Assembly: GCA_963810095.1 (NCBI GenBank)
Contig: CAWEMM010000011.1
Location: 64,001-128,000 of the forward strand
Length of the DNA: 64,000 nt
Direction of reading: 5' to 3'
Source of the DNA: an uncultured Chloroflexia bacterium
GTDB taxonomy: Bacteria; Chloroflexota; Anaerolineae; CG2-30-64-16
This document shows positions 2,151 to 61,478 of this stretch, piece by piece; the stretch's first letter is position 1, and each line of letters begins with the position of its first letter. A program made the translations under genes and the position numbers. The notes below the pieces were generated by a model. The model ran no database searches. It was not told the DNA's origin and was given only the letters and a program-made list of their open reading frames with translations.

Positions 2151-2216
2151 CCCGTACGCACAGATACAGTTAGCTACGCTCACTTCTGCATAGTTTTGCA
2201 TAGGAATGCGCCACCC

Positions 2217-6422: not shown

Positions 6423-7438
6423 CGTCACTTCATTTCCGGTAGAGCGGCCGCGGCGCTTGCGGCTAAATTCCGCACTCCGCGCGCTGGTCCGTGAGACGTC
6501 CCTGACGCCCGCGGACTTCATCCTGCCGCTCTTCGTGCGCCATGGCGAAGGCCGGCGCGTGCCGATCCAGTCCATGCCCGGCCAGGCACAACTGACGCTC
6601 GACCTGCTCGGGGCCGAGGCGCGCGACATTGCCGCGCACGGCATCCCCACGGTCGTCCTCTTCGGCATTCCGGAACATAAAGACGAGACAGGCAGCGACA
6701 ATTACAGCCCGAACGGCATCGTGCCGAGCGCGATCCGGGTCATCAAGGACGCCGCGCCCGACCTCCAGGTCATCTCAGACATGTGCTTCTGCGAGTACAC
6801 CGACCACGGCCATTGCGGGATCATCAACCTGCCGGGCCAGGAGCACTTTGTCGCGCGCCCTCCCCCACGGCTACCTGCTCAACGACCCCACGCTCGAGCT
6901 CCTGGCCCACGCGTCCGTGGTCCATGCGCAGGCGGGCGCGGACATCATCGCACCTTCCGGTATGCTGGATGGCATGGTCGGTGCGATCCGGAATGGGCTG
7001 GATGCGGCGGGCTTCACCCAGACACCCATCATGAGCTATGCCGTCAAGTATGCTAGCGGGTTCTACGGGCCCTTCCGCGATGCGGCGGAAAGCCCGCCCC
7101 AGTTCGGAGACCGCAGCCAGTATCAAATGGACCCGGCGAATCGCCGGGAGGCACTCAGGGAAGCCGCGCTGGACGTGAGCCAGGGCGCGGACATCCTCAT
7201 GGTCAAGCCCGCACTGCCCTACCTCGACATTATCGCCGACGTGCGCCGGGCGTTCAACCTGCCGGTCGCGGCGTACCAGGTCAGCGGCGAGTACGCGATG
7301 CTGCACGCGGCAGCGGCAAACGGCTGGCTCGACCTGCCGCGCTGCGCGCTGGAGAGCCTGGTCGCGATCAAGCGGGCCGGGGCCGACATGATCCTGACGT
7401 ACTTTGCCCGCGACGCGGTCCGGTGGCTGGAAGGATAA
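6415..7438 (+). CDS. hemB: Porphobilinogen synthase, Zn-type (frameshift near 6855)
   Basis: [59 protein letters not shown]. Confidence 0.93.
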
Positions 7439-21000: not shown

Positions 21001-21870
21001 GCGGCGCTGTCTGCGTCTGGTTCCGGCGCGCGCCTCTACCGGACGGGCGACCTGGCCCGGTGGCTGCCCGACGGCCGGATTGAATTTGTCGGCCGGGCGG
21101 ATTACCAGCTCAAGATTCGCGGCTTCCGGGTCGAGCTAGGCGAGATCGAGGCGGTCCTGAGCAAAGCGCCCGGGATCAAGCAAGCCGTCGTGCTGGCCCA
21201 GCCGGCCCACGGCGACGGAGCCTCGGGGCACAAAAACGGCGCGGCGAACGGCGACGTCAGGCTCGTGGCATGCGTGGCCCAAGACGCCCTACACGGGCCC
21301 TCGGAAGGCGAAGTGCGGGGGTTCCTGCGCAGCCGCCTGCCCGACTACATGATGCCCGCCGCCTTCATTGCCATGGACAGCCTGCCTCTGAACGCCAGCG
21401 GCAAGGTGGACCGGGCGGCCCTGGAAAAAAGCGCAGCCTTGCTCGCGCCGGCAGGTGGCCGGGCAGCGACCGCAGAGTTGGTAGCGCCGCAGAACCAGCT
21501 AGAGCGCGATCTGGCCATGATCTGGCAACAGGTGCTCGGGCTCGAGCGAGTGAGCATCCACGACAACTTCTTCGATTTAGGCGGCCACTCGCTGCTCATG
21601 GCCCAGGCCCACAGCCGCCTGCAGGAGCGCCTCGGCCGCGAGGTGCCCATCGTGGACCTATTCCGCTACCCGACCATTCACCTCCTGGCCGCTTACCTGG
21701 CGGGTGGGGCCGGCGAAGCGGCTCCGGCCAGCGCAGCCCAGCAGGGGCAGGAACGGGGCCAGCAGAAGCGCCAGGCACTGCAACAGCGCGCCGAGCAGGC
21801 TCAGCGCGCGGAGCAGGCTCAGCGCGAACGGATGCTGCAACGCACGCCGCCACGTAAGGGCGGTAGGTAG
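15044..21870 (+). CDS. Hybrid PKS/NRPS 1: KS-AT-ACP-C-A1-PCP (several frameshifts)
   Basis: [37 protein letters not shown] (KS); GHSVGE and HAFH (malonyl AT); [11 protein letters not shown] runs in frame into LGLDSIM (ACP); HHIVVDLWS (C); [11 protein letters not shown] (A); GGHSL (PCP). Start codon approximate. Confidence 0.88.
20968..21015 (+). repeat. In-frame 18-bp imperfect tandem repeat in an A1 loop
   Basis: GCGCTGTCGGCTGAATCG / GTGCTGTCTGCTCAAGCG / GCGCTGTCTGCG ([16 protein letters not shown]). Confidence 0.65.
21784..21826 (+). repeat. In-frame 18-bp tandem repeat (QRAEQA) in the C-terminal docking region
   Basis: CAGCGCGCCGAGCAGGCT CAGCGCGCGGAGCAGGCT CAGCGCG. Confidence 0.7.
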
Positions 21871-21875
21871 ACAAT

Positions 21876-24800
21876 ATGACCGACGACTTCAACGCGGCGA
21901 TGAACCAAGGCGAACAGGCCGAAAACGACCCGCTGTCCAACGGCTGGTCCGAGTTCGACCTCGCCATTGTCGGCATGGCCGGCCGCTTCCCTGGCTCGCC
22001 CGACCTGGACGCGTTCTGGCGCAATCTGGTGGACGGAGTCGAGTGCGTCCGCCGGTTCACGGACGAGGAAGTGGCCGCGGCGGGCGTGGACCCTGCGCTG
22101 AGCAGCCAACCCCACTATGTCAAGGCGGGAGGCGTGCTCGAAGGCGCAGAGTGGTTCGACGCGCATTTCTTCGGCGTTTACCCCCGCGAAGCCGAGATCA
22201 TGGACCCCCAGCATCGTGTCTTCCTGGAGGTAGCGTGGCATGCGCTGGAGCATGCGGGATATGATCCGGCAACCTCCGAGTCGACAGGGGCAGGCGCTAT
22301 CGGCGTCTATGCGGGCTGCGGGCTCAACACCTACCTGATCTACAACCTGGCGCAGAACCGCGAGATTCGCGAGAACGTCCAGGGCTACCAACTGACCATT
22401 GCCAACGACAAGGACTACCTGCCGAGTCGGGTCGCCTACAAGCTGAACCTCCGTGGACCCGCCGTCAACGTGCAAACGGCTTGCTCCACCTCGCTCGTCG
22501 CCACCCACCTGGCCTGCCAGGCGCTGCTGAGCCACGACTGCGACATGGCGCTGGCCGGCGGCGTGACGGTGCGGCTGCCACAACAGGGCGGCTATTTGTA
22601 CCAGGAAGGCGGCATTATGTCGCCCGACGGGCACTGCCGTGCTTTTGACGCACAGGCCGCTGGCACGGTCGGCGGCAACGGCGTCGGCATCGTCGTGCTG
22701 AAGCGGCTGAGCGATGCGCTGGCGGACGGAGACACGATCCACGCGGTGATCAAGGGCACCGCGATCAACAACGACGGCTCGAACAAGGTCGGCTACACCG
22801 CGCCCAGCGTGGAAGGCCAAACCGGGGTGATTTCCGCCGCACACGCAGTGGCCAACGTCGACCCCAGCACCATTTCTTACGTCGAAACGCACGGCACGGG
22901 CACCGCGCTGGGCGACCCGATCGAGATCACCGCCTTGACCAACGCGTTCGGCCTGGCGGCCGGTCCGGATGATCTTCCGGCTCAAACGTGCGCCATTGGC
23001 TCGCTGAAGCCGAACGTGGGCCATCTCGATGCAGCGGCCGGCATCGCCGGCCTCATCAAGACGACACTCGCGCTGGAGAACGGGCAGATCCCGCCCAGCA
23101 TCAACTTCAGTGCGCCCAACCCACAGATCGACTTCGCCAAATCACCGTTTTATGTAAACGACAGGCTGAGCGAATGGCGATCAACGGGCGGCCATCGCCG
23201 GGCAGGCGTAAGCTCGTTCGGCATCGGCGGCACGAACGCGCACGTCGTCTTGGAAGAAGCGCCGCCCCCCGCCCCTGCCGGCGCCTCACGAGCTGCGCAA
23301 CTGCTGGTAGTTTCCGCAAAGACGGAAGCGGCGCTCGACGCAGCCACTGCCAACCTGGCCCAGTTCCTGGCAGACCGTCCGGCAGTCAACCTCGCGGATG
23401 CGGCCTATACGCTCCAGGTCGGACGCCAGCCGTTCGCCTACAGGCGGGTTGCCGTCGTGCGCGATCTGGCAGACGCCTGCGTCGTGCTCGAAGGCCGCGC
23501 GCCCGGCCGTTTGGTCGGCAATGGCGGCGCGGCCGGTGCGACAAGCGTCGCGTTCATGTTCACCGGGCAAGGCAGCCAGTATGCCGGCATGGGGCTCGGG
23601 CTGTACAAGGCGGAACCGGTCTTTCGCGACGCCGTGGATCGCTGTGCGGACATCCTGCGGCCTCACCTCGCGACTGATATCCGGGGCTTGATCTATCCGC
23701 GGGTTGCGGATGGTGCCGACGAACGCCTCAAGCAGACGGCCATGACGCAACCTGCGCTGTTCGTAGTCGAGTACGCGTTGGCGCAATTGTGGCTGGCGTG
23801 GGGCGTGAGGCCCGGCGCGATGATCGGCCATTCGATCGGCGAGTACGTGGCCGCACATCTCGCGGGCGTGATGTCTCTGGACGACGCACTTATGATCGTG
23901 GCGGCCCGCGGACGATTGATGGGCAGCCTGCCCGGCGGCTCGATGCTCGGCCTGCCCCTCGGCGAGGAGGACGCGCACGCGCTGCTGGTCCGCCACCCCC
24001 GGCTCGCCGTCGCCACGATCAACGCGCCCGGCATGGTCGTCGTGGCCGGCCCGGACGAGGCTGTCGAGTCCCTGGAGCAAGAACTGGCCGGCAAGAAGAT
24101 TGCAACCCGGCGGCTGCACACCTCCCACGCGTTCCACTCGGCTATGATGGACCCCATCCTCGCACCCTTCGCCGACGTCGTCCGTCGTGCCCGTCTGAGC
24201 GCGCCCGCCACACCGTATGTCTCGAACGTGACCGGCACGTGGATCACCGCCGCAGACGCGACCGATCCGGCCTACTACGCCCGCCATCTGCGCGGCGCAG
24301 TCCGCTTTGCCGACGGACTGGCCGCGTTGGCCGCCGAACCAAACCGGGCCTTCCTGGAAGTGGGCCCTGGGCCGACGTTGGCAGGCCTGGCCAAGGCACA
24401 CCCGGCGGTGGGCCGGGAGCGCCGTGTCGTGACGTCGCTGCGCCACCCCCGCGAAGCGGCCGACGACCTCGAGTTTATGCTCGGCGCGCTCGGGCAACTG
24501 TGGCTCGGGGGCATTGTGCCGCGCTGGGATGCGGCCGAGGAACGCGACGGTGCGCCGTGGGTCGCGTTCTACGGTGGCCAGAACCGGCACGAGCGGCGTC
24601 GCCGCATTCCGCTGCCCCTATACCCCTTCCAACGCGAGCGCTTCTGGGTGGAGCCCGACACGAAGCTTGGTGCGCCGGCCACGGACGAGAGTCGTGCAGC
24701 CAAGACGGCCGACATAGCGGGCTGGTTCTACGTGCCGTCCTGGCGCCGCATCCCCATGCCCCCGCGCTCCGACGCCTCGGGGTGGCAGGTGCTGGTCTTC

Positions 24801-27800
24801 GCACTCGGGCACGAGGCACTCGGGCACGAGGCACTCGGGGACGAGGCGCTGATGGATGAGGCTCTCGCAGACGAGGCCCACGAGGGCACCGTCCAACTCC
24901 TTGCGGCCCGTGCGTGCGGGCGACCGGTGGTGGTGCGGCCGGGTAGGGGCTTTGCCGAGGGAGCGGACGGCTTCACGGTCGAGCCAGGGGCGGTCGAGCA
25001 GTACGAGGCCCTGTTCCGCGCGCTCGAGGCCGAGGGTCGCCTGCCGCAGTCCATCCTGCACTTGTGGAGCGCGGGGCAGGGTCAGGACGAGAGCGCGGTC
25101 CAGTCGCACGGTTTCGACAGCCTGGTCGCGCTGGCGCGGGCCTGGGGCACCGTTGCCGGCAGCGCCGAGGTCCAGGTCGACGTGGTCACCAGGGGCATCT
25201 ACAGCGTGACGGGAGACGAGCCAACCACGCCCGCCGCGGCGATGATCCTCGGCGCAGCGCGTGTCATCGGGCAGGAGACTCCCGGGATTAAGGTGCGAGT
25301 GGTGGACCTGGCCGCGGGCGAAGAGAATGCAGCCTGGCTGGCCGACGTGGCGTTCACGGAGCACCGGCAGCAGGTCGTTGCGCTGCGCGGCCGGCACTGC
25401 TGGGCGCAAGGCTTCGAGCGGCTAGAGACCGGTTCGCCTGCCGGCGGCTCGTCGCGGCTGCGACAGCAGGGGGTTTACCTGATTACGGGCGGGCTGGGCC
25501 GGATCGGGCTGGTGCTTGCCGCCCACCTCGCCTCAAGCGTGCAGGCGCGGTTGGTCCTTGTGGATCGCATCGCGCTGCCCGAGCGCGACGCATGGCCCCG
25601 ACTGCTGGCGGACGGCGACCCGGGAGAGGACCCCGCGGCCGGGCCGGCCGCGGCGCTCCGAGCCCGCCTGCAGAAGGTGCTGGCGATCGAGGCGGCCGGT
25701 GGGGCGGTCCTCTCGCTCCAGGCCGACGTCGCCGATTCCGCGCAGATGGCCGCGGCGGTGGACGAGACCATTAGCCGGTTTGGTGCACTGCACGGGGTGA
25801 TCCACGCGGCGGGGACCGTGGGACAGGCCGCAATCCGCTCGATTTCAGAGACGGACGCTGCAGTTCGCGAGGCGCAACTTGGGCCGAAGGCCGGCGGTGC
25901 CTACGCGCTGGCCCAGGCCCTCGGAGCGCATGGCGGCGAACTCGATTTCGTGATCCTGATGTCCTCCGTGTCGACCGTCCTCGGCGGCCTTGGATTCGCC
26001 GCGTACGCGGGCGCCAACAGCGTTCTCGAAGCGTTTGCGCTTGAGCAGGCGCGAGCCGGCCACCCGTGGCTGAGCGTGGCGTGGGACGGCTGGGCATTTG
26101 CAGAGGAACGCGCGCTGGGCGCGGCCGCGGCAGGTGCGCTGGCCTTCGCCATCACCCCGGAAGAAGGCGTCGCCGTATTTGACCGGCTGCTGTCCGTCGT
26201 CGACCAGGGCGCAGTCGTCGTGTCGACCGGTGATCTCAATCTGCGACTTGTGCGCGCACAGGCAGGCGAGACGCGTCCCAAGCCCGCGGCGGGCGGCACG
26301 GAGAAACCGTCCGGCAAATACGCCCGACCTCACATGCGCACAGCGTACGTGGAACCGTCAGACGACGTGGAACGCGCGATCGCGGCCGACTGGGAAGGCA
26401 TCCTGGGGATCTCGCCGGTCGGCGTGCACGACGACTTCTTTGAGCTCGGTGGGCACTCGCTCCTGGCGACGCAGCTGGTGTCGCGGCTACGCGACGCGTA
26501 TCATGTCGAACTACCGCTGCGAAACCTGTTTGAGACGCCCACGATCGCCGGCCTGGCCGCGGCGATTCGCCGCGCGCAGGGTGCGGGCGCCGGGGCAGCC
26601 GAGGGACCGGCCGGTCCCAGCGCCCGCGAAGCTATCCTGCCGCTCCCCCGCGACGGCGAGCTGCCGCTGTCGTTCGGCCAGGAACGGTTGTGGTTCCTCG
26701 ACCAACTGGCCCCCGGCAGCGCCCTGTACAACAACTTCGCCGCCCTGAGGCTCAACCCCACGGGCGAGGGCGCACCCCTGGACCCGGCGCGGCTCGAATG
26801 GGCGCTCAACCAGGTTATCGCCCGCCACGAGGTGTTGCGCACGGTCTTCGGCGAGCGCGACGGTAAACCGACGCAGACCATCTTGCCCGCCATTCCGGTC
26901 TCGGTCCCCGTGATCGACGTCGCTACGATGGAGGACCCGCAGGGGGCCGGGCAGCGCGTGGAGGACCTGGCGCGGGAAGAGGCGCGGGCGCCCTTCGACC
27001 TGGGCAAGGGCCCACTCCTGCGCGCGAAGCTGCTGCGCACGGGCGCGGACGAATATGTCTTGTTCTTCACCATGCACCACATCGTATCTGACGGGTGGTC
27101 GGTGGGCGTGCTCATCCAAGAGGTCGTCCGGTTCTACGAATCGGGCGGCGACACGGTTCTCGCGCCGCTTCCAATCCAATATGGGGACTACGCGGCGTGG
27201 CAGCGGGAGTGGCTGGGCCGCGTTCGGGAAGAGCAGCTGGCGTACTGGCGCGGCCGGTTGACCCCCGAGCCTGAGCCGCTGGAGCTGGCAACCGACCGCC
27301 CCCGGCCCGCGGTGCAAACCTCGAACGGGGCCAACTACTGGTTCAGCGTCGCCCCGCGCACGCATCGCAAGCTGGAGGCGCTGGCGCAAGGCGAGGGCGC
27401 CACCCTGTTCATGGCGCTGCTGGCCGGGCTCCAGGCCCTGCTGCACCGCTACACAGGCCAGGAAGACATCTGCGTCGGAACACCGGTGGCGAACCGGGAC
27501 CGGAGCGAGACCGAAGGTTTGATCGGCTTCTTGCTCAACACGTTGGTGCTCCGCACCGATCTGTCGCCGGCGCCCGGTGCAGCCGGTGTCAGCTTCCGCG
27601 AGCTCCTCGGCCGGGTGCGTGAGGTGGCCTTGGGCACGTACGCGCACCAGGACCTGCCGTTCGAGAGCCTGGTCGAAGGTGCTCTGCACGGCGGTCTCCA
27701 GCCGGCCCGGGATATGAGCCGCTCGCCCTATTTCCAGGTCATGTTCGACCTGCAGGCCGCGCCCCTCGCAGGGATCACGCTGCCGGGCATGTCGCTCGCA

Positions 27801-30056
27801 CCCCTCCGCGTCGACGGCGGCACGGCCAAGTTCGACCTGGCATTGTCGCTCGAATACGGACCGTCCGACGACGGCGGCGCGCTAGGCGGCTACCTGAACT
27901 ACAACAGCGATCTTTTCGACGCAGAGACCGTCGTGGCGATGGTCGAGCACCTGAACCTGCTGCTGGCCGACGCGGTCGACCGGCCAGACGCAGCTATCTC
28001 GGAGCTTGCGCTCATTTCGGCCGCCGAGTCGCGCCGGCTCCTGGTCGAGTGGGCGGACGGCGGGCTGAGTACACAGCCGCTGGGGGCCGGGCAGACCGTC
28101 GTCTCAATGTTCGAAGAGCAGGCCAGGCTGCGCCCCTTGCAGCCGGCGGTCGTGATGGCCGACGGCAGCGGCGCGACCCTGACCTACGCCGCGCTCAACG
28201 AGCGGGCGAATAAAATGGCGCGCTGCATGGCGGAGAGCGGCATCGGGCACAAACCCGATCAGATCGTCGCCTTGTTGCTGCACCGGTCCGTCGACATGAT
28301 CGCAGCCATTTGGGCCGTGCTCAAGGCCGGAGCCGCGTTCGTGCCGATCGATCCGGGGAACCCGCCCGAACGCATCGCGTTCATGCTGGCGGACTCAGGC
28401 GCTGCCGCCTTGATCACGGATGGTCCTGCCGACATGGCGGCACTGCCCCAGCATGTATTCCAAGTCGACGCGGACGGCGCGCGGTTCGCAGGGCAGCCTG
28501 GCCGCGACCTCGGGCTCCGGCTGCCGGGTTCAGCGCTGGCGTACGTGATTTACACGTCGGGCTCGACCGGCCATCCCAAAGGCGTCCTGATCGAGCACGG
28601 CGGGCTGGCACAGCACATCGTCGACGTCACTGCGCGCTTCGGCCTCCGGCCGGGCGATCACATCCTTCAGTTTGCCGCGTATACCTTCGACCAGGGGCTC
28701 GAACAGGTGCTGACGGCGCTGACGGTTGGCGGCACCCTCGTGGTGCGCGGCGACGAAGTCTGGCCGCCGGCCGAGTTCCCGCAGGTCCTGGCCGGCTACG
28801 GGCTGAACGTGGTGAACCTCCCACCGGCATACTGGAACCAGGTGCTGCTCGAGTGGGTGGCCTCAGAGCCCACCAACAAGCTGCCGAAGCGCCAGCTCCG
28901 CACGGTGATCAGCGGCGGCGATGTCCTCACGCCCGAAAGCCTGCGGCTGTGGAGCCAGGTGCAGGCGACCACGGGCCTGGCCGGCGAAGGCGCGCCGGGG
29001 GTGCGCCTCATCAACGCTTACGGCCCCACTGAGACGACCGTCACCGCCTGTGCGTTCGACGTCCCGGGTGACTGGTTCGCCCGGTCAAGCCGCCCCGTGC
29101 CGGTTGGGCGGCCCCTTCCAAACCGCCTGGCCTACGTGGTGGACCGGCACGGCAGGCCAACGCCCGCGGGCGTGCCCGGCGAGTTGTGGCTGGGTGGGAA
29201 CGGCGTGGCACGAGAATATCTGAACCGCGACGAGCTTACCGCCGAAAAGTTTGTCGAGAACCCGTTTATACAGGTGATGACCGGCCGCGCGCCTGCGACG
29301 GCTCGGGTCTATCGCACCGGCGACCTGGTGCGCTACACGCGAGACGGGAACCTGGAGTTCATGGGCCGGATCGACCAGCAGGTTAAGGTGCGCGGCTTCC
29401 GCATCGAGCTCGGCGAGATCGAGGCCGCGCTGCTCGAGCACCCGAGCGTGGCTGCGGCCGTCGTGGTTGATCGGGGCGATGGGGGCGACAAGCAGCTTGT
29501 GGCCTTCTACGTTGCCGCCGCGAGCGCACCCGCACCGGGTGTCCTGCGCACATTCCTGGGCGAGAAGCTGCCCGGTTACATGGTCCCGGCCGCATTTGTC
29601 GCCCTTCCGACTCTCCCCCTGACCGCCAGCGGAAAGGTGGACCGGACCCCCCTGCGCACCGCGACGCTGCCCGCGCCAGACGATATCGATGCGGGTGAGT
29701 CCTACGTCGCTCCCAGGACGCCGGTCGAAACCAAAATCGCGGCAATCTGGGCAGGGGTGCTCGGGGCGCCGCGGGTCGGCGTCAACGACAACTTCTTCGA
29801 CCTGGGCGGACACTCGCTCCTGGCCACGCAGATCGTCTCGCGGCTGCGTGCCCACTACCCGGTCGACCTCCCCTTGCGGCGGCTTTTCGAGTCGCCCACG
29901 GTTGCCGGGCTTGCCGGCCTCGTCGAAGAGGGTCTGCTCGCTCAGCAGAGCGAGGAAGACCTGGCCGCCCTGTTGGCCGAACTGGACGGATTGAGCGAAG
30001 AGGAAACGCGCCTGCTCCTGGATGACGCTGCAGCGGAGCAGGGCAACGAGGCATAG
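21876..30056 (+). CDS. Hybrid PKS/NRPS 2: KS-AT-KR-ACP-C-A2-PCP
   Basis: Intact 2726 aa; hybrid-type KS NDKDYLPSRVAYKLNLRGPAVNVQTACSTSL; AT GHSIGE/HAFH; KR TGGLGRIG and AAYAGAN; no DH seen; HHIVSDGWS; A core motifs; two GGHSL carriers. Confidence 0.95.
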   Translation: MTDDFNAAMNQGEQAENDPLSNGWSEFDLAIVGMAGRFPGSPDLDAFWRNLVDGVECVRRFTDEEVAAAGVDPALSSQPHYVKAGGVLEGAEWFDAHFFGVYPREAEIMDPQHRVFLEVAWHALEHAGYDPATSESTGAGAIGVYAGCGLNTYLIYNLAQNREIRENVQGYQLTIANDKDYLPSRVAYKLNLRGPAVNVQTACSTSLVATHLACQALLSHDCDMALAGGVTVRLPQQGGYLYQEGGIMSPDGHCRAFDAQAAGTVGGNGVGIVVLKRLSDALADGDTIHAVIKGTAINNDGSNKVGYTAPSVEGQTGVISAAHAVANVDPSTISYVETHGTGTALGDPIEITALTNAFGLAAGPDDLPAQTCAIGSLKPNVGHLDAAAGIAGLIKTTLALENGQIPPSINFSAPNPQIDFAKSPFYVNDRLSEWRSTGGHRRAGVSSFGIGGTNAHVVLEEAPPPAPAGASRAAQLLVVSAKTEAALDAATANLAQFLADRPAVNLADAAYTLQVGRQPFAYRRVAVVRDLADACVVLEGRAPGRLVGNGGAAGATSVAFMFTGQGSQYAGMGLGLYKAEPVFRDAVDRCADILRPHLATDIRGLIYPRVADGADERLKQTAMTQPALFVVEYALAQLWLAWGVRPGAMIGHSIGEYVAAHLAGVMSLDDALMIVAARGRLMGSLPGGSMLGLPLGEEDAHALLVRHPRLAVATINAPGMVVVAGPDEAVESLEQELAGKKIATRRLHTSHAFHSAMMDPILAPFADVVRRARLSAPATPYVSNVTGTWITAADATDPAYYARHLRGAVRFADGLAALAAEPNRAFLEVGPGPTLAGLAKAHPAVGRERRVVTSLRHPREAADDLEFMLGALGQLWLGGIVPRWDAAEERDGAPWVAFYGGQNRHERRRRIPLPLYPFQRERFWVEPDTKLGAPATDESRAAKTADIAGWFYVPSWRRIPMPPRSDASGWQVLVFALGHEALGHEALGDEALMDEALADEAHEGTVQLLAARACGRPVVVRPGRGFAEGADGFTVEPGAVEQYEALFRALEAEGRLPQSILHLWSAGQGQDESAVQSHGFDSLVALARAWGTVAGSAEVQVDVVTRGIYSVTGDEPTTPAAAMILGAARVIGQETPGIKVRVVDLAAGEENAAWLADVAFTEHRQQVVALRGRHCWAQGFERLETGSPAGGSSRLRQQGVYLITGGLGRIGLVLAAHLASSVQARLVLVDRIALPERDAWPRLLADGDPGEDPAAGPAAALRARLQKVLAIEAAGGAVLSLQADVADSAQMAAAVDETISRFGALHGVIHAAGTVGQAAIRSISETDAAVREAQLGPKAGGAYALAQALGAHGGELDFVILMSSVSTVLGGLGFAAYAGANSVLEAFALEQARAGHPWLSVAWDGWAFAEERALGAAAAGALAFAITPEEGVAVFDRLLSVVDQGAVVVSTGDLNLRLVRAQAGETRPKPAAGGTEKPSGKYARPHMRTAYVEPSDDVERAIAADWEGILGISPVGVHDDFFELGGHSLLATQLVSRLRDAYHVELPLRNLFETPTIAGLAAAIRRAQGAGAGAAEGPAGPSAREAILPLPRDGELPLSFGQERLWFLDQLAPGSALYNNFAALRLNPTGEGAPLDPARLEWALNQVIARHEVLRTVFGERDGKPTQTILPAIPVSVPVIDVATMEDPQGAGQRVEDLAREEARAPFDLGKGPLLRAKLLRTGADEYVLFFTMHHIVSDGWSVGVLIQEVVRFYESGGDTVLAPLPIQYGDYAAWQREWLGRVREEQLAYWRGRLTPEPEPLELATDRPRPAVQTSNGANYWFSVAPRTHRKLEALAQGEGATLFMALLAGLQALLHRYTGQEDICVGTPVANRDRSETEGLIGFLLNTLVLRTDLSPAPGAAGVSFRELLGRVREVALGTYAHQDLPFESLVEGALHGGLQPARDMSRSPYFQVMFDLQAAPLAGITLPGMSLAPLRVDGGTAKFDLALSLEYGPSDDGGALGGYLNYNSDLFDAETVVAMVEHLNLLLADAVDRPDAAISELALISAAESRRLLVEWADGGLSTQPLGAGQTVVSMFEEQARLRPLQPAVVMADGSGATLTYAALNERANKMARCMAESGIGHKPDQIVALLLHRSVDMIAAIWAVLKAGAAFVPIDPGNPPERIAFMLADSGAAALITDGPADMAALPQHVFQVDADGARFAGQPGRDLGLRLPGSALAYVIYTSGSTGHPKGVLIEHGGLAQHIVDVTARFGLRPGDHILQFAAYTFDQGLEQVLTALTVGGTLVVRGDEVWPPAEFPQVLAGYGLNVVNLPPAYWNQVLLEWVASEPTNKLPKRQLRTVISGGDVLTPESLRLWSQVQATTGLAGEGAPGVRLINAYGPTETTVTACAFDVPGDWFARSSRPVPVGRPLPNRLAYVVDRHGRPTPAGVPGELWLGGNGVAREYLNRDELTAEKFVENPFIQVMTGRAPATARVYRTGDLVRYTRDGNLEFMGRIDQQVKVRGFRIELGEIEAALLEHPSVAAAVVVDRGDGGDKQLVAFYVAAASAPAPGVLRTFLGEKLPGYMVPAAFVALPTLPLTASGKVDRTPLRTATLPAPDDIDAGESYVAPRTPVETKIAAIWAGVLGAPRVGVNDNFFDLGGHSLLATQIVSRLRAHYPVDLPLRRLFESPTVAGLAGLVEEGLLAQQSEEDLAALLAELDGLSEEETRLLLDDAAAEQGNEA
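24801..24875 (+). repeat. In-frame 15-bp tandem repeat x5 in the AT-KR linker
   Basis: GCACTCGGGCACGAG x2, GCACTCGGGGACGAG, GCGCTGATGGATGAG, GCTCTCGCAGACGAG (ALGHE, ALGHE, ALGDE, ALMDE, ALADE). Confidence 0.8.
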
Positions 30057-30103: not shown

Positions 30104-33100
30104 ATGACGCGCATTTCATCGAGCATATTGGACGGGCTATCGCCGGAGAAGCGAGCGCTGTTTCTTGAGAAACTCCGCCAAAAAGGACAGTTAGCCGCAG
30201 CGCAAGGCGCGGAGGAATGGCGTCCCATTCCACGCCGCGCCGATACTGCCGCCTACCCGCTGTCCTTTGCCCAACAGCGACTGTGGATTCTGAGCCAGCT
30301 CGAACCGGATAGCCCCTTTTACAACATTCCCCTGGCGCTCCGGCTGTCGGGCCCGCTTGACGTGGCTGCGCTGGAACGCGCGCTGAACGAGATCGTCGGC
30401 CGGCACGATGTGCTCCGGGCGAGCTTCATCACGGAACGCGGCAACCCGGTCCAGGTCATCGCCCCCGAGCTGCGGCTCTCGCTGCAGCCCGAAGAACTCG
30501 CTCCCGCCTCTTCCGGTGCAAGCGCCGCGGCCGGTGTGGAAGCTGCCGCCCGCAGCATCGCGGCCGCTGAGGCACGCCGACCCTTCGATCTCATGCGGGG
30601 TCCGCTCGTCCGCAGCCGCCTGCTTAAGCTGGCCGGCGACGAGTTCCTGGCGCTGCTCACCTTCCACCACATCGTGATGGACGGTTGGTCCACGGGTGTC
30701 TTCGTGTCCGAACTGGGCGCGCTATATGCAGCATATGCAGGCCCAGGGAAGGATGGGGTCCCCTCCCCGCTTGCGCCGCTGCAAATCCAGTATGCCGACT
30801 TTGCGGCCTGGCAGCGCGGTCAGTTGCAAGGCGAGCGGCTCAGTGCGGAGCTGGCCTACTGGAAAGAGCAGTTGCATGGCATCCCGCCGACGCTTGAGCT
30901 GCCCACCGACCGGCCCCGGCCAGCAGTGCAGACGGTGAACGGCGCAGTGTACCCCTTCGAACTGCCCGCGCACCTGGTGGACCGGCTTCGTACGCTGGCG
31001 CACAACGACACCGCCACCGGAGGTGGCGCCGCGACGCTTTACCAGGTGCTCCTGGGGGCTTTCCAGGTGCTGCTCCACCGGTACTCGAACCAGGATGACA
31101 TCTGCGTCGGCACGCCCGTCGCCAACCGCAACCGGCAAGAAATCGAAGGCCTCATCGGGTTCTTTGTCAATACGCTCGTGATGCGAAGCCGGTTCGAGGA
31201 CAAGCCGAGCTTTCACGCCCTCCTGCGGCGGCTGAAGGAACAGGCGCTGGCGGCCCAGTCACACCAGGACGTACCGTTTGAGATGCTGGTGGACGAGTTG
31301 TCGGCTGCGGGGGAGGCCGCGGCGCAGCGCAACATGGCGGTTACCCCAGTCTTCCAGGTCATGTTCACGCTGGAGCAGAACTCGGGCGGCGACGGGCGAG
31401 CGGCTGCACCGCTGGTGGGGATCACGATTAACCCCGTCGCGACGCACAGCGGCACTGCCAAGTTCGACTTGACCCTGTTCGTGAGCGAGAACGCGAACGG
31501 GACCTTGACGGGCTCATTCGAGTACAACACCGACCTGTGGTACACGTCGACCATCGGACGCATCGCCGGACACTACCTCAAGCTGCTCGAGGGCATCGTA
31601 GCGCAGCCCGACACCTCCGTCGACTTGCTGCCGATCCTGACCGCGGCCGAAGTACGCCAGGTCATCCTGGAGTGGAACGATACGGCAACAGACTACCCGC
31701 GTGACCGGTGCCTGCACGAGTTGTTCGAGGAACAGGTGGGCCTGCGCCCGAACGCACCCGCGGTCACATACGGCGCCAACACGCTGAGCTACGCGGATTT
31801 GAACGCGCGAGCCAACCGGCTGGCACATTGGCTGCAGGAGCTGGGGGTCGGCCCCGAAGTGCTCGTAGGCGTCTATCTCGAGCGCGGGATCGATATGATC
31901 GTCGCGATCCTGGGCATCATCAAGGCCGGCGGCGCGTACTTGCCGCTTGACATGGAATACCCCGCCGACCGCCTCGCGTTCATGTTGGCTGACGGCAACG
32001 TTCCGGTTCTGATAACGCAGTCCATGCTCAGGGATCGGGCGGTGAAGCTCGTTGTCGAACGCCCCGAGCTAGTCCTGATCCAGATGGATGCCGACGCGCC
32101 GCAGCTGGCGTCGCGAAGCACAATGCCGCCCCCCGTTACAGTGAAGCCGGCGAACCTGGCCTACGTGATCTATACGTCAGGATCGACCGGGATCCCGAAA
32201 GGGGTTTCGATCCAGCAGCGCGCCATCGCCCGCTTGATCTTCAATACGAACTACATCGACCTGCAGCCGGGCGACAAGATCGGGCAAATTTCCAATGCAT
32301 CGTTCGATGCCGCTACCTTCGAGATATGGGGCTCGCTGCTGCGCGGCGGGGAGCTAATCGGGGTTGACAAGGAGACGGCGTTGTCGCCGGGCGCGCTCGC
32401 AGCCTACCTGCGCCGCAGCGGGATCGGGATCATGTTCCTGACCGCCGCACTCTTCAACTACGTCGCTTCAGAGGAACCGACCGCCTTCAACACGATGAGC
32501 TGCCTGATGGCGGGCGGCGAGGCCCTAGATCCTAGATGGGTGCGCCGAGTACTCGAGCACGGCGGACCGGCTCGCTTGCTGAATGGGTACGGGCCGACGG
32601 AGAGCACGACATTTGCCACCTGGCATCCCATTTCCGAGGTGCCGCCGGACGCCCTGGGCGTGCCGATCGGAAGGCCCCTCTCGAACACGCAGGTCTATGT
32701 GCTGGACCGTCACTTCCGCCCGGTCCCGATTGGTGTGTCTGGCGAGCTATGCATTGGCGGCGACGGGCTGGCGGTTGGCTACCTGAACCGGCCCGAGTTG
32801 ACCGCAGAAAAGTTCGTGCCCAACCCGTTCGACGGCCACGATGCCCCGCGCCTCTACCGGACGGGCGACCTCGTGCGGTGGCTGCCAAATGGCAGCATCG
32901 AGTTCCAGGGGCGTATCGATCACCAGGTAAAGATCCGCGGGTTCCGCATCGAGCTCGGCGAGATCGAGACCATGCTGGGACGCCACCCGCAGGTGCGCCA
33001 GGCGTTTGCGATGGTCAGCCCCGGCAACCTGGTGCAGGATGCATCGGGTGCGGGCGCGGACACGATCAGTTCGACAGAGCGCAAGATCGTGGCGTGCATT

Positions 33101-36100
33101 ATGCCGAAAGAGGGCGCAGCTGCGCCCAGCACATCAGACTTGCGCAGCCACTTGAAGCAGCATCTGCCCGACTACATGATCCCCGCTGCGTTTGTGCTCC
33201 TGGACGAGCTCCCGATCAACCCCAACGGCAAGGTTGACCGCGGCGCCTTACAGCGCATCGCACTGCAAGCGCTGAGCTCCGGTCCGGCCGAATCCGAGCG
33301 GGCATACGTCGCACCGCGCAGCCCGGTCGAGCGCTTCCTGGCCGAAAAGTGGCAGGAAGTGCTCGGCGTCGAGAAGGTGAGCGTCACCGACAACTTCTTC
33401 GAGCTGGGCGGCAACTCGCTGCAGGCCGCGGTGCTGACGAACCGGATGCAGGAGGAACTCGGCGCCAGCGCGCACGTGCGCGCGCTCTTCATGGCGCCTA
33501 CGATCGCCGACCTGGCCAACTACCTGGACGAGTATTACCCGGACGCGGTGGCGCGCATCGCCGGCATCGGCGTCGTCCCTGCGGCCAAGCGCGAACCCTC
33601 CGGCCCTGGTACCGGTGGGGCAAGCGCGGAGGGCGTTGGAACTGCGGGTGCGTCGGCTTCGCCCGCCGCCTACACCTTCCAGGAAAAGGTGCGCGCCGCG
33701 CAGGTGGACGATGCGAAGGTGGCACAGTTCGGACAGATCGTGCCGCCGCTGCCCGCTCGCGGCGAGAGCCCGCTCGAGATGACCGACCGGAACCCGCCGG
33801 CCGTGTTCGTCCTGTCGCCGCCGCGCTCCGGCTCCACGCTGCTGCGCGTGATGTTGGCCGGGAACCCGCAGCTCTTTGCGCCGCCTGAGCTCGATCTCAT
33901 GTCCTTCAACACGCTCGCCGAGCGCCGGGATGCCTTCTCCGGGAAGTTCCAGTTCTGGCTCGAAGGCCCGCTGAAGGCAATCATGGAACTGCGGCAGTGC
34001 AGCGCGGACGAAGCAGAGTCGATCATGGCCAGTTTCGAGCGCGCGGGTTGGTCGACCAAACGCTTCTACCGACAACTACAGGAGTGGATCGCGGAATCAC
34101 AGCGCGCGGCGAACTCCGGTCTCCCGGTGTCGCAGCGGATGCTGGTCGACAAGACCCCCGTCTACCCCATGGACCGCCACATCCTGGCCCGGATGGAGCA
34201 GGACTTCGAGAACGCCCGCTACATTCACCTGGTGCGGCACCCGTTCGCGACCGTCTACTCCTTCATGGAAGCCAAGCTGGAAGACATCTTCTTCCGGTGG
34301 GACCACCCCTGGAGCATGCGGGAGTTGGCCGAGCTGGTTTATCTCGTCAGCCATCGCAATATCCTCAACTTCCTGGAACAGATCCCGGCAGAGCGCCAGC
34401 ATCGCGTGTGGTTCGAGGAGATGGTCGGGGATGCGCCGCGCGTAATGCGCGGTATCTGCGACTTCCTGCAGATCGAGTTCCATCCCGATATGCTCGAGCC
34501 GTACAAGGGCGACAAGATGACCTCGGGCATCCGTCCGGGGCACCAGATGGTCGGCGACTTCAAGTTCTACCTGCGGAACAAGATCGATCCGAAAGCTGCC
34601 GATCGGTGGAAGCGTTTCAAGAAGGACGATCGGCTGGCCGAGCAGACCTGGGACGTCGCGCGGCGGCTCAATTACGAGTTGCCGGCAGACGAAGAAGGCG
34701 GGGAGTCCGCAGCCGGGTCGACGAACGGCACGGGGCACAACCAGAACGGTGCACAGAACGCGCCTATCCGCCGCCGGGGTGCGGACGAGCCGCCCGTGCT
34801 CTCCTTTGCGCAGGAGCGGCTGTGGTTTCTCGACCAGTTCGAAGGGGCCGGTGCTAATGGCGGAGGCAGCCCATTCTACAACGTGCCGGCGGCTGTGCGG
34901 CTTACGGGAAACATCGACGTAGGTGCGCTGCGGTGGGCTCTGAACACGATCGTGCAGCGCCATGAGGTGCTGCGCACAACCTTCGCCTCGGTCAACGGCG
35001 TCGCGTCGCCGGTCGTGGCAGAGCACCTCGAAGTCGAGCTGTCCGTGGTCGACCTGGCCTCGTTGCCCCAGGAGATGCGGGAAGTGGAGGCAGGGCGACT
35101 GGCGGCCGAAGAAGCGCGCCGGCCCTTCAACCTGGCGACGGGGCCCCTGCTCCGGGCGACGCTGCTTGACCTGGGAACGAGCGAAAACGGGCGCGAGACG
35201 GTCGCTCTCATCACCATGCACCATATCGTGTCTGACGGCTGGTCAGTCAATGTGTTCATCAGAGAGCTCGCGGCGCTGTACGGCGCGCACACGTCGGAAG
35301 CACGCCCGGGCCAGCCGGAGAATACGGCAGTTTTGCTGCCGCTGCCGATCCAGTACGCGGACTTCGCTGCCTGGCAGCGAAACTGGTTTGCAGGCCATGA
35401 CGACGCACACGCTGGCGGATCGCGGCGTTCGCCGCTGCAAGACCAGCTGGACTACTGGATAGAGCAGTTGAAGGGCCTGCCGGCCCGGCTGGACCTGCCG
35501 ACTGACCGGCCGCGGCCGGCAGTGCAGACGCTGAACGGCGAGCGCTACACCTTCACCCTGCCGGAGGAACTGACGGGGCGCATCAAGGCGCTCGCGCGCA
35601 GCGAGGGCGTAACCCTGTTCATGACGCTCCTGGCCGCGTTCCAGACGCTGCTGATGCGCTACACGGGCGAGGAAGATCTTGCCGTGGGCACCCCCATCGC
35701 AGGCCGCAACCGGCCCGAGATGGCGAACCTCATCGGCTTCTTCGTCAACACCCTGGTCATGCGCGGCGACCTTTCGTCTGCGCCCGGCGAGGCGCCGCTC
35801 ACCTTCCGCCAGTTGCTCAAGCGCACGCAGGCGACGGCGATCAAAGCCTTTGCGAACCAGGACGTGCCGTTCGAAACCCTGGTCGATACCCTGCAGCGGC
35901 AGGGCGCTCAACCCCAGCGCGACATGAGCCACACGCCACTCTTCCAGGTCATGTTCGCACTGCAGGATGCGCCGCTCCAGGCCATGCACGCGCCGGGCCT
36001 CACCCTCAGCCCGCTGCAGCCCGACACAAAGACGGCGAAGTTCGACCTGATGCTCAACGTGGTCGAACGGACCGACGTCCTGCGCTGCGCGCTCGAGTAC

Positions 36101-39100
36101 AACACGGACCTGTTTCGCGCCAGCACCGCCGTCCGGATGGCCCAGCACCTGCAAGTCCTGCTCCAATCGATCGTGTCTGACCTGCCGCGGCAGGGTCCAG
36201 ACACGCCGCTGGCGACGCTGCCGGTGCTCACGCCGGCCGAGCGGCAGATGATGCTGGCCGACTGGAACGACACGCGCACCGACGTGGATACGGGCGATAC
36301 GCTTGCCGCCCGATTCGAGGCGCAGGCGCGGAAGACGCCCGAGGCGCAGGCCGTGATCGCCGAGGTTGAACAAGGCGGCGCGGGCCATTCAACGTCGCTG
36401 ACTTACGCCGAGCTGGATGCCCGGGCCGGAGCGCTCGCCAAGCACCTCGCCTCGCTGGGTGTGGGCCCGGAGAGCATCGTAGGCTTGATGGCCGATCGCT
36501 CGCTCGATCTCCTGGTCGGGGTCGTCGGCATCTGGAAGGCAGGGGCCGCGTACGTGCCGCTCGATCCGGCATATCCCCCGGACCGGCTCGCATACATGCT
36601 CTCGGATTCCGGCGCACGGGTGCTGGTCACCCAGGCGCAGCACGCGCGGCCCGAGGTGGTGGACGATCTGGCAGTCGTCCTGCTCGACTCCGACGCATTA
36701 GGGGTTGCCGGCTCCACATCCGCCGAAACATCGGGGAGGCATGCTGCGCCCGACAACCTGGCCTACGTCATCTACACGTCGGGCTCGACAGGACGGCCGA
36801 AAGGGGTGTCGGTCACCCATCGCACTGCGCTCAACCTGGCCGCCGCGCTGCAGCGAGCCGCGTACGCCGAGCATGGTGACGAGCGGCCCCTGCGCCTCAG
36901 CCTGAACGCGCCGCTGTCGTTCGACGCGTCGGTCCAGCAGCTCGTGATGTTGACGCTAGGTCACACGCTGGTCGTCGTGCCCCAAGACGTGCGCGCGGAT
37001 GCCCCGGCGCTGCTCGCGTTCATCCGCCGCCAGCGCCTGGACCAACTCGACTGCGTGCCGTCGCAGCTCAAGCTGCTGCTCGAGGAAGGACTCCTGGCGG
37101 AGGATGCCGAGTGGCGGCCGTCCATCGTTTTCCCGGGCGGCGAAGCCATCGACGAGCCAACGTGGGCGACGCTGGCCGCCGCGCCCGAGACGCGCTTCTA
37201 CAACATGTACGGCCCGACCGAGTGCACGGTCGACTCGACCACGATCTCGGCTCATGTCGCGCCACGCCGACCCACGATCGGCCGGCCGTTGGCCAACGTT
37301 CGAGCCTACGTCCTCGACCGCAACCTGGAGCCCGCGCCCATTGGCGTGCCCGGCGAGTTGTACCTTGCCGGCGCGGGCGTCTCGCGCGGCTATCTCCACC
37401 GGCCCGATCTCACCGCGGAACGCTTCCTGCCCGACCCGTTTGACGCGCAGGAGACTCCGGGATTTGGGGCCGGCCGCATGTATCGCACGGGCGACCGAGT
37501 GCGCTGGTTACCCGACGGCACGCTTGAATTCCTGGGCCGCGTCGACTTCCAGGTGAAGGTGCGCGGCTTCCGCATCGAGCTAGGCGAGATCGAGGAGGCG
37601 CTGCGGTCACACCCTGGGCTCGCCGAAGCTGTCGTCCTGGTTGCCGAAGACGCGGGGCCCGCCGACGAAGGCATGTCGGGCACGAAGCGCTTAGTCGCGT
37701 ACGTCGTCCCGCGGACCGGCTCGGCAGCGGCGACGCCATTGAGCACGGCCGACCTGCGGCGTCACCTCCTCACCTCGCTGCCCGAATACATGCTTCCTTC
37801 TGCGTTCATGCTGCTCGATGCAATGCCGCTGACGCCGAACGGCAAGCTTGACCGGAAGGCGCTGCTGAAACTGTCGCCCGACGAAGCGGTGCGGACCGAA
37901 ACCGGCACGAGCTATGTCGAGCCGTCCGGCTTCGTGCAGACAACCCTGGCCGAGATCTATGGCCGGGTGCTCGGACTCGAGCGGGTCGGAATCAACGACA
38001 ACTTCTTCGAGTTGGGTGGGGATTCGATCCTTACCATCCAGGCCGTCGCCCACGCTGGCCAGGCAGGCATCACCATCACGCCGAAGCAGATCTTCCAAGC
38101 GCCGACCGTCAGCCAGTTGGCGCTGCTCGCCGAGGCGAGCGCGGCCGCCGGCGAGGCCGGCGTAATGGCGGACGAGCAGGGACCGGTGGAGGGTGACCTC
38201 CCCTTGACGCCCATCCAGCACCGCTTCTTCGAGACCGGCTTCGCACAGCCGCATCACTGGAACCAGTCGCTGCTGCTGGCGGTGCAGGCCCAGATCGATC
38301 CGAAGAGCATGCGGGACGCGGTCGCCGCGGTGCTCGGCCAGCACGACGCGCTCCGGCTGAGGTTCGCCGTGGTCGACGGCCAATGGCGTCAGTGGAATGC
38401 CGGCCTCTCGGACGACGTCCCATTCGAGAGCATCGACCTCTCGGCGCTCGACGAACCGGCTCGGGGCGAGGCATTGCGCGAGCACACTCTGCGCCTCCAG
38501 CAAAGCCTGAACGTCAGCCATGGGCCGCTCCTGCGGGTCGCATACTTTGACTTCGGCCCCAACGCGGCCGGGCGGCTGTTGACCATCGTCCACCACCTGG
38601 CAGTGGACCGGGTCTCCTGGCGGCTCATTCTGGAGGACCTCGGCTCGGCCTATGAACAGGCCTGCAGCGGCCGCGCGCCGCAGCTGCCGCGGAAGACGAC
38701 AGCCTTTCGCGACTGGGCCCGGCGGCTGGCAGAATACGCCGGATCGTCCGGCGTCGCGGCAGAAGCGAAGCGGTGGATGCAGTGGGGCGGGCAGGCCCTG
38801 CCCGCAGCGGAGGCGGCGCCCGTACCCTGCGATTACCCGGCGGGGAGCAACCTTGAAGCCGATGCGCGCACCGTCGCGGTCTACCTGAATGAAGCCGAGA
38901 CGGGAACGCTGATCCAAGAAGCCGGAAAAGCGTACGGGACCGAAGTGAGCGACGCGCTCCTCACCGCGCTCGGCCATGGCCTTCCGCCGCTGGACGGGCT
39001 CGCCCGCGTGCCTGGTGGAAGTCGAAGGCCACGGCCGCCAGGCGGAACTCGTCGGCGCATCGCTCGGAAACGGCGGCGAGAGCAAAATCAACCTCGCGCG

Positions 39101-39668
39101 CACGGTCGGTTGGTTTACATCCGTATACCCGGTCCTGCTGCAGATTCCGCCGCACGACGAGCCCGGCCAGGCGTTGATGGCCGTCAAGGAGCAACTCCGC
39201 GCCACGCCGAACGGTGGGATCGACTACGGGGTGCTCCGCTACCTGTCCACTGACCCGCACATCACGGCGGTCATGCAGGGCTTGCCGCGACCCCAGATCA
39301 GCTTCAACTACCTGGGCCAGTTCATCCAGGAAACGACTGAGGCGGCGTTCGGCAGCGCGGTGTTCCGGCCCGCGCCGGAAAACAGCGGACCCGACCACGC
39401 CGCGGAGCACCAGCGGCAGTATGCGCTTGACGTGACAGTGAGCGTATTTGCCGGCAAGCTTCGGGTCGAGTTTACGTACAGCGATGCGCAATTTGCCCCG
39501 GAGACGGCCGAGACTCTCGCGGACTTCTATGTCGACGCGCTCCGCGGCTTGATCCAGCACTGTCTTTCCCCCGAGGCCGGAGGATACACCGCATCGGACT
39601 TCGCCGACACCGGCTTGAGCGACGAAGGGGTGCGGGATTTGTTGGCAGAGCTCGGCGAGATCGACTGA
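30104..39668 (+). CDS. NRPS 3: C-A3-PCP-sulfotransferase-C-A4-PCP-E (frameshift near 38975)
   Basis: HHIVMDGWS and HHIVSDGWS C domains; GGNSL and GGDSI carriers; E motifs HHLAVD, EGHGR, RTVGWFT, FNYLGQ and YTASDF spread over ORFs 30104..39253 and 38976..39668. Confidence 0.93.
33790..34685 (+). other. Embedded PAPS-dependent sulfotransferase domain (CurM/OLS-like)
   Basis: PAVFVLSPPRSGSTLLRVMLAGNPQLFAPPEL (5'-phosphosulfate loop plus Glu), LVDKTP and YIHLVRHPFATVYSF (3'-phosphate site). Confidence 0.88.

Positions 39669-54650: not shown

Positions 54651-54654
<4 letters not shown>
46470..54654 (+). CDS. NRPS 5: C-A7-PCP-C-A8-PCP-E (frameshift near 53055)
   Basis: HHIITDGWS, HHIISDGWS, GGHSL, GGDSI, then E motifs HHLAVDGVSW, EGHGRDE, RTIGWFT and YTPSDF; ATGA overlaps at both ends. 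Confidence 0.93.

Positions 54655-61474
<6,820 letters not shown>

Positions 61475-61478
<4 letters not shown>

Follow-up and report, generated by a model that had tools for sequence, protein, structure and literature searches.

The stretch of DNA analyzed here raises the question which atom is sulfonated by a sulfotransferase (ST) domain that is built midway into a nonribosomal peptide synthetase (NRPS), behind a module whose own residue carries no hydroxyl group. This stretch, referred to below as the window, comprises 64,000 nucleotides from an uncultured Chloroflexia bacterium (G000:C11:64001-128000; draft genome of 16 contigs, 88.5% complete). ST domains are not among the textbook tailoring domains of NRPSs. 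The domain in question lies within the plus-strand gene 30104..39253, and its identity, intactness and placement, as well as the specialized carrier protein in front of it, the distinct clade to which it belongs and its conserved neighbors, were all established. In the favored reading, to which a probability of roughly 0.4 was assigned, the ST would act in cis on the chain tethered to the peptidyl carrier protein (PCP) of its own module and would sulfonate the side-chain amine of the preceding diamino acid, here called X.

Identity and integrity of the ST domain

The open reading frame (ORF) at 30104..39253 (+) encodes 3049 amino acids, in which Pfam searches detected three Condensation, two AMP-binding and two PP-binding domains and a single Sulfotransfer_3 domain. 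The match of the latter to PF13469 (amino acids 1232-1460, E 6.5e-25) was above the curated cut-off; a second, weak Pfam match of the same domain was to Sulfotransfer_1 (PF00685, E 1.5e-05). For structure comparison, the domain was excised (window 33746-34708) and found to align over its full length with the ST of CurM (4gbm_A; E 5.7e-65, query 8-313, chain 23-311) and with that of an olefin synthase (OLS; 4gox_A; E 2.6e-55), with an identity to both solved structures of approximately 50%. Beyond these, the next matches in the PDB were tyrosylprotein sulfotransferases, at P-loop level only, and the only match in an NCBIfam search was to NoeE, again at P-loop level and far below the NoeE cut-off. 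The ST lies at about 33767..34684 (+).

All motifs for binding of 3'-phosphoadenosine 5'-phosphosulfate (PAPS) were present (SPPRSGSTLLRVMLAG, PPEL, DKTP, and LVRHP). In a residue-by-residue comparison with 4gbm and 4gox, the PRSGST loop, the PPE glutamate, the lysine of DK(T/S)P and LVRHP...S were kept. The glutamate of PPEL is reportedly the catalytic base. Cofactor and PPE residues were invariant across 158 NRPS-embedded ST domains. These results confirmed the initial annotation of the domain as a CurM/OLS-type PAPS-dependent sulfotransferase with intact motifs. Neither of the two outcomes that had been named as grounds for abandoning this assignment, lack of an ST profile match and degenerate catalytic residues, was observed.

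Two features of the domain might nevertheless be taken to indicate loss of function. The residue two positions after the PPE glutamate was Asp (PPELD), whereas it is His (PPELH) in CurM and OLS, and a Ser/Gln/Ala-rich insertion of 13 residues was found just before the DKTP loop (window 34100-34140; amino acids 129-141 of the excised domain). At the columns of this insertion, a gap was seen in all but a few of the 157 other NRPS ST domains in the alignment (148 to 154), as well as in CurM; OLS was shorter there. Combined with the many frameshifts in the assembly, these features would fit a catalytically dead or merely structural domain. Such a role is the least probable of the explanations considered, and a very improbable one: the cofactor and catalytic residues were all kept and were also invariant in alignment A1, whose sequences were 56-83% identical to the window copy, the reading frame of the ST was open, frameshifts struck housekeeping genes as well, and the frameshift of the ST gene was contradicted by an independent contig.

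This last frameshift lies far behind the ST. The alignment of the gene's orthologue in a second genome (G001) covered 30128-38974 in one reading frame and continued over 38973-39665 in a different one, and one independent short-read contig (run X1, depth 2) was without one letter at 38971. Because a single frameshift at approximately 38971-38974 interrupts the epimerization (E) domain, the true end of the gene is probably at 39668. Elsewhere, the assembly was rich in frameshifts, with the ketosynthase (KS), the acyltransferase (AT), several condensation (C) and adenylation (A) domains, and upstream housekeeping heme genes of the hemA and hemB types (glutamyl-tRNA reductase, ALA dehydratase) split (window 4187-5447, 6415-7438, 15214-18016, 52663-54654, and 61475-63998; G000:C11:130000-139000). 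The last three NRPS A domains, past the window end at G000:C11:130000-139000, fell into three to six pieces each. With one low-depth contig as the basis, these frameshifts look like indel errors of a draft assembly of long-read type rather than decay of the cluster. DNA runs with the locus consisted of short contigs, with shares of 0.18 or less, and were used for the frameshift check only; among the sequencing runs, no RNA run was listed as holding the locus.

Position of the ST domain in the assembly line

The ST module starts with a C domain (30239..31663; Pfam Condensation, best stretch amino acids 50-519), followed by an A domain (31685..33346) and a PCP with GGNSL at the phosphopantetheine site (33335..33526; Pfam PP-binding, amino acids 1078-1141), all on the plus strand. 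The A-domain code DAFFMGGTFK was re-derived by profile alignment and by eye and was Val/Ile-like, as initially annotated, corresponding to a residue without a hydroxyl group. An Ala/Gly/Pro-rich linker (33527..33766, +), which was recognized in the translation and gave no family match, separates the PCP from the ST. The span 33310-34800 of the initial annotation takes in the PCP, this linker of approximately 70 residues, the ST and a further linker that leads up to the next C domain; of this span, the ST itself occupies about 33767-34684. Downstream of the ST, also on the plus strand, the next module consists of an ordinary C domain with an HHxxxDG motif (34829..36253; Pfam), an A domain with the Gln-like code DAQDFGMVDK (36278..37951; profile alignment), a PCP (about 37922-38137) and, starting near 38174, an E domain. 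The ORF list and Pfam give C-A-PCP-ST-C-A-PCP-E for the gene as assembled.

The position of the ST in the middle of the NRPS, between a PCP and a C domain and without an adjacent thioesterase (TE), was confirmed by Pfam. Absence of a TE, which had been stated without qualification, holds for the ST gene and for the window but not for the assembly line, which ends in a PCP-TE nine modules after the ST, approximately 40 kb downstream and outside the window, and is accompanied by a second ST gene (ST2).

The STs of CurM (curacin A) and OLS share with the window ST the family, the PAPS motifs, the PPE glutamate and the cis fusion behind a carrier. These STs follow the acyl carrier protein (ACP) of a polyketide synthase (PKS) module with a ketoreductase (KR), and the TE behind them eliminates the sulfate, with decarboxylation, so that a terminal alkene is formed (PMC11730487). 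In contrast, the window ST follows the PCP of a Val-type C-A-PCP module instead of the ACP of a KS-AT-KR module, and is followed by an ordinary C domain instead of a decarboxylating, sulfate-eliminating TE; it also differs by the Asp in place of His.

An ST between a carrier and the next C domain has been described in OciA (cyanopeptolin/oscillapeptin; PMC2533009), DysB (dysinosin; PMC6520454), and AerB (suomilide, varlaxin; PMC10143770). These glycerate-loading first modules were the only NRPS-embedded STs found in print. Their STs sit beside an FkbH or GA-loading domain (FkbH-PCP-ST in AerB; PMC10143770) and sulfate the glycerate of their own module, with retention of the sulfate. Unlike these, and compared by published layout only, the window ST belongs to an elongation module (module 5) and has no acceptor in its own module; no FkbH or GA-loading domain was detected by Pfam in the ST gene or in the upstream cluster genes. 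A search of open full text turned up no study dealing with ST domains of NRPS elongation modules, with subscription journals and supplements, whose MIBiG-type tables could list such an architecture, outside its reach.

Occurrence of ST domains in NRPS elongation modules

A database search with the PCP-ST-C region yielded a set of 120 listed proteins, consisting of the window protein (P0001) and 119 relatives, and PF13469 was located inside an NRPS in every one of them (120/120). Their taxa included Thermoanaerobaculia and other Acidobacteriota, Chloroflexota, Anaerolineae, Caldilineae, and KSB1. A metagenome scan gave 342 relatives, from which 80 loci were kept; locus-level counts given below cover 83 related loci. 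The closest named relatives were metagenome-assembled genomes of Anaerolineales and Anaerolineae, with ST identities of 72-82%, and among 401 sampled genomes of the phylum of the window, an ST at E <= 1e-30 was found only in the window's own genome. Since PCP-ST-C is widespread in uncultured bacteria, and an ST between a PCP and the next C domain has been published for glycerate loaders, the architecture itself is not new, a point on which the initial annotation needs correction. What the window adds is a distinct PPELD clade and a gene-cluster family, conserved in Anaerolineae-like genomes, that includes a second, free-standing ST.

Among the 158 aligned STs, the next domain was a C domain in 123 cases, a TE in 24 and a PCP in six, with the protein ending after the remaining five; one listed protein had three consecutive ST modules. 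Own-module codes were readable for 147 ST modules and comprised 39 Ser-like, 33 Thr-like, 22 Tyr-like, 20 Val/Ile-like and approximately 10 DAED/DAEH-type codes. The carrier in front of the ST showed GG[NDS]S[IL] in 139/156 cases and GGHS in 3/156; comparison carriers showed GGHSL in 137/163 cases before a C domain and GGDSI in 34/34 before an E domain. The GGNSL of the window, initially regarded as atypical, is therefore the normal motif type of ST-partner carriers. As these carriers form a motif class of their own, the ST likely works on the cargo of the carrier that precedes it.

Two variant layouts were encountered in the family. Termini of the type PCP-ST-TE, an NRPS counterpart of the ACP-ST-TE of curacin, accounted for 24/158 STs (for example P0008, P0014, and P0024; loci L026, L027, L038, and L051) and mostly followed Thr, Ser or unusual codes (DLKNFGTDVK, DALVSGCIFK). 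Tandem PCP-ST-PCP-ST arrangements were found behind a single DAEDIGTIVK-type module in P0042, P0044, P0045, P0049, P0052, and P0066, and in loci L039 (8726-10850) and L081. In these tandems, the residue near the catalytic Glu was Ala in the first ST and Asp or Glu in the second, which suggests that the two STs may perform different sulfonations on one stretch of chain.

The PPELD clade and the location of its acceptor

The residue two positions after the PPE glutamate was Glu in 33/33 Thr, 22/22 Tyr-like and 37/38 Ser modules, and Asp in 20/20 Val/Ile modules. In a tree of 249 ST domains, the window ST fell into a clade of 60 (support 0.999), of which 51 members had Asp, eight had Glu and one was a broken copy. 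Own-module codes in this clade were Val/Ile-like, Asn, Gln, DV[YW]YLGGICK, DAED-type, and DAENIGAITK, and its few Glu members were associated with Thr, Tyr-like or DAED codes. The uncharacterized STs of Ser, Thr, and Tyr elongation modules in Acidobacteriota and other taxa belong to the same family and share the PCP(GG[NDS]S)-ST-C or PCP-ST-TE layout. They carry PPELE and follow hydroxyl residues (92/93), however, whereas the window ST belongs to the separate PPELD clade behind non-hydroxyl residues. Because the modules of this clade load residues without a hydroxyl group, the acceptor of a PPELD ST must, judged by the A-domain codes, lie upstream and not in the side chain of its own module.

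The acceptor would remain in the ST module if an enzyme with its gene elsewhere beta-hydroxylated the carrier-bound Val/Ile and this hydroxyl were then sulfated by the ST, with the sulfate either retained or eliminated to a dehydro-amino acid. Such a sequence of events would preserve the rule that an ST acts on the residue of its own module, as for Ser, Thr, and Tyr modules. It is considered highly improbable, as the same clade also occurs behind Asn, Gln, and diamino-acid-type modules, and no hydroxylase-family Pfam match was found from the heme operon to the phosphopantetheinyl transferase (PPTase) and export genes, a region with four ORFs without any Pfam match. A hydroxylase within the cluster was rejected as a candidate on the same negative result, with these four ORFs unassigned.

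The residue loaded directly before Val/Ile is X. Its A domain (28089-29741, +) has the code DQENIGAVTK, with Glu at position 3 (checked by eye), and is part of the upstream gene 21876..30056 (+), in which Pfam detected KS-AT-KR-ACP-C-A-PCP. The KR hydroxyl is thereby placed two modules before the ST. The gene before that, 17932..21870 (+), encodes ACP-C-A-PCP (Pfam) with the Tyr-like code DASTIAAIGK, whose residue is extended by the KR-bearing PKS module. Modules immediately before an Asp-class ST module (n-1) had codes of the type D[QPA]ENIGA[IV]TK. Among the 21 Asp-class STs in the 83 loci, the n-1 module was visible for 14, and all 14 had Glu at code position 3; the corresponding proportions were 8/29 for n-1 modules of Glu-class STs and 18/352 for A domains of the 120 scanned proteins. 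A structural paper on SulM, published in 2025, names Glu at this position as the hallmark of a binding mode, "mode 1", in which A domains accept diamino acids from 2,3-diaminopropionate (Dap) to Lys (PMC12042044). A PDB search with the A domain of X returned generic NRPS matches only and was uninformative on its substrate, and X-type codes were not listed in any paper found in open full text, supplements being outside the search.

The arrangement KS-AT-KR-ACP-C-A-PCP directly upstream of the ST gene was kept in the window, G001, and loci L003/L004. A KS-AT-KR-ACP module preceded the ST by two NRPS modules in the window, G001, L003, L004, and 12 Asp-class loci. In L050, the distance was a single module, and the Asp-class ST follows the X-type module itself, behind a tandem carrier. 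For the eight other Asp-class loci, in which no KR was seen, too little upstream sequence was available, except in L022, whose ST of the same clade had no KR in its three visible upstream modules. In L022, P0051, and P0115, the Asp-class ST followed a DAEDVGTIIK or Orn-like code and then Asn. STs with Ala at the position near the catalytic Glu followed DAEDIGT[IV]VK modules, and in L031 the KR lay at a distance of four modules; STs with Gln followed DAEH-type codes, for example in the terminal module of P0036.

These neighbors bear on the acceptors suggested in the initial annotation, namely a KR-derived hydroxyl, a Tyr phenol or a nitrogen upstream of the ST. An upstream acceptor fits a clade that sits behind non-hydroxyl modules; since the conserved n-1 neighbor is a diamino-acid-type module, a nitrogen appears at least as likely as the statine-type hydroxyl.

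Proposed N-sulfonation of residue X

In the proposed mechanism, whose enzyme activity, sulfonated atom and retained sulfo group are predictions, an active, PAPS-dependent ST would work in cis on the lipopeptidyl chain held on the PCP of module 5. The Val/Ile residue of this module would offer nothing to sulfonate, so that the acceptor would lie further back in the chain, and the likeliest acceptor would be the side-chain amine of X, which the diamino-acid-type code DQENIGAVTK would load one module earlier. The resulting sulfamate would stay in the product and cancel one positive charge of an otherwise polycationic lipopeptide with about four residues of diamino-acid type. The ordinary C domain behind the ST would then pass the sulfonated chain to the Gln-type module.

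Precedents for this chemistry come from free-standing enzymes. In sulfazecin biosynthesis, SulN uses PAPS to N-sulfonate a PCP-bound tripeptide at the side-chain amine of Dap (PMC11298585), the same chemistry as is favored for the window ST, which is likened to SulN by function only. SulN acts in trans on a C-terminal Dap, and its sulfamate primes beta-lactam closure by the TE (PMC11298585), whereas the window ST would act in cis, in the middle of the line, on a penultimate residue. Allopeptimicin occurs as active and as N-sulfated, inactive lipopeptide congeners, and the sulfate, attributed to AptB, is taken to serve self-protection (PMC9169493). It may be a model for the role of a charge-cancelling sulfamate here. 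Unlike the window ST, AptB is a free-standing actinomycete enzyme that acts after assembly and is assigned by homology only (PMC9169493).

Several observations weigh against N-sulfonation of X. The substrate of this module was deduced from a single code position, and the mechanism offers no explanation for an ST that acts one module after X. To our knowledge, every CurM-type ST characterized so far is an O-sulfotransferase. Asp and Glu interchanged within the tandem PCP-ST-PCP-ST group, and the residue near the catalytic Glu is therefore not a strict marker of specificity. The count of 14/14 for Glu at code position 3 overstates the support, because the loci share descent, and the independent architectures among them number about four: the main family, L039/L081, L050, and L022/P0051. 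Finally, a KR-bearing module stood two modules upstream, or one in L050, in all 13 Asp-class loci in which a KR was detected, while a view without a KR was obtained only in L022; the KR hydroxyl therefore fits almost as well.

With this hydroxyl as acceptor, the ST would O-sulfate the KR-made beta-hydroxyl two modules upstream, in a statine-type gamma-amino-beta-hydroxy unit on the Tyr-like residue, and the ester would stay in the product. Sulfation would wait until the hydroxyl has left the position beta to the thioester, from which sulfate would eliminate easily. The closest solved relatives O-sulfonate just such a KR-made beta-hydroxyl (PMC11730487), and the hydroxyl would persist in the chain because the PKS module has no dehydratase (DH) domain by Pfam. 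On the other hand, an ACP-ST-C arrangement right behind the KR module would be expected in this case, the His near the catalytic Glu of CurM and OLS is Asp in the window ST, the same-clade ST of L022 lacks a KR in the upstream modules visible, and Ala- and Gln-class relatives occur on modules with Glu at code position 3, far from any KR. O-sulfation with a retained ester is judged doubtful, yet it is the strongest of the alternatives.

The same hydroxyl could serve a different end if the sulfate were a leaving group, as in curacin: after its sulfonation, elimination would stand in for the missing DH and leave a vinylogous, alpha,beta-unsaturated residue, or the neighboring side-chain amine would displace the sulfate with ring closure, and no sulfate from this ST would remain in the product. 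Activation for elimination is the precedent in the family (PMC11730487), the PKS module combines a KR with the lack of a DH, and a hydroxyl and a probable amine nucleophile are on adjacent residues in all main-family loci. Against this stands the lack of an evident partner catalyst, the C domain behind the ST being ordinary and no TE adjacent. Across the family, C domains following an ST had HHxxxDG in 114/117 cases and, in a tree of 346, formed no clade of their own but were scattered among other, ordinary C domains, and a dedicated "eliminating" subtype was rejected for this reason. STs also follow Tyr-type modules (22/158), where elimination is impossible, and a retained sulfo group would for this reason be the simplest common outcome for the ST family. 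Use of the sulfate as a leaving group is accordingly rated as unlikely.

Assembly line, second sulfotransferase and neighboring genes

The window has a G+C content of 67% and is mostly occupied by one long plus-strand hybrid PKS/NRPS line. The cluster begins with an FAAL fragment near 13000-14465 and extends past the window end. The A-domain codes start with DASTIAAIGK (Tyr-like), followed after KS-AT-KR-ACP by DQENIGAVTK (X), DAFFMGGTFK with the ST (module 5) and DAQDFGMVDK (Gln-like) with the E domain. They continue with DASTIAAIGK, DAWTIAAVCK, DAWILGAVCK, DAEHMGLITK, DAEHVGAVTK, and DAWTVAAVCK, and end with DVGEAGSIDK (Orn-like), DLTKIGEVGK (Asn-like) and twice DASTIAAIGK before the terminal PCP-TE.

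Directly after the TE lies ST2, a free-standing Sulfotransfer_3 gene (L001 13714-14655, corresponding to G000:C11:139714-140655), whose start overlaps the stop codon of the PCP-TE gene (TGATG). ST2 resembled the embedded ST only at the P-loop and gave a weak PDB match to 2zq5 (E 2e-4). It was kept in both relatives searched (77% and 51% identity), where it adjoins genes for a major facilitator superfamily (MFS) protein and a type II TE; in the window genome, it is followed by an MFS exporter, a type II TE, and a PPTase. With ST2 encoded beside the embedded ST, the product may carry two different sulfo groups. An adenosine 5'-phosphosulfate kinase was encoded in the genome (211 bits), so PAPS can be made.

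ST2 also bears on sulfation of the phenol of the Tyr-like residue (DASTIAAIGK), three to four units upstream of the embedded ST. In both the window and G001, the peptide begins with a Tyr-like code, and Tyr-type modules are common partners of STs elsewhere (22/158). Where Tyr is the likely acceptor, however, the Tyr module itself contains the ST, which has PPELE (22/22), three further modules of the line have the DASTIAAIGK code and no ST, and ST2 could equally well be the enzyme that sulfates a phenol. The phenol is thus an improbable acceptor for the embedded ST, though less so than a hydroxylated Val/Ile.

The first PKS module of the window (15214-18270) consisted of KS-AT-ACP and left no space for reductive domains. 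In G001 (C11:22666-32808), whose cluster was scanned with the domain types of the window as the only queries, the orthologous module had approximately 3 kb more between the AT and a weak KR match. The lipid heads of the two products should differ. A heme operon lies upstream of the cluster and includes genes for glutamyl-tRNA reductase, porphobilinogen deaminase, ALA dehydratase, URO-D, a class-III aminotransferase, and an amine oxidase-like protein. The operon is headed by a gene for a MerR-type regulator and one for a radical-SAM/SPASM protein (window 2064-4177), which are probably part of an oxygen-independent heme step and unrelated to the cluster.

Implications

ST domains in elongation modules occur in hundreds of assembly lines of uncultured bacteria, and the window presents a sub-clade whose own residue cannot be the acceptor. 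More broadly, and with odds against it, we tentatively propose that NRPS elongation modules have taken up a clade of CurM-type STs to serve in cis as N-sulfotransferases of the penultimate tethered diamino acid, forming a sulfamate, that the residue near the catalytic Glu (His, Glu, Asp, Ala or Gln) tunes the nucleophile, and that the polycationic products carry a possibly removable charge mask. If so, this mask would act in self-protection or as a prodrug. With an amine as acceptor, the family would illustrate on-line formation of sulfamates in cis and charge masking in cationic lipopeptides, and would offer PCP-ST as a portable engineering unit. With the KR hydroxyl as acceptor, it would show a way of installing a sulfate ester at a safe distance from a thioester. 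Either acceptor would improve structure prediction for a widespread, uncharacterized family of gene clusters.

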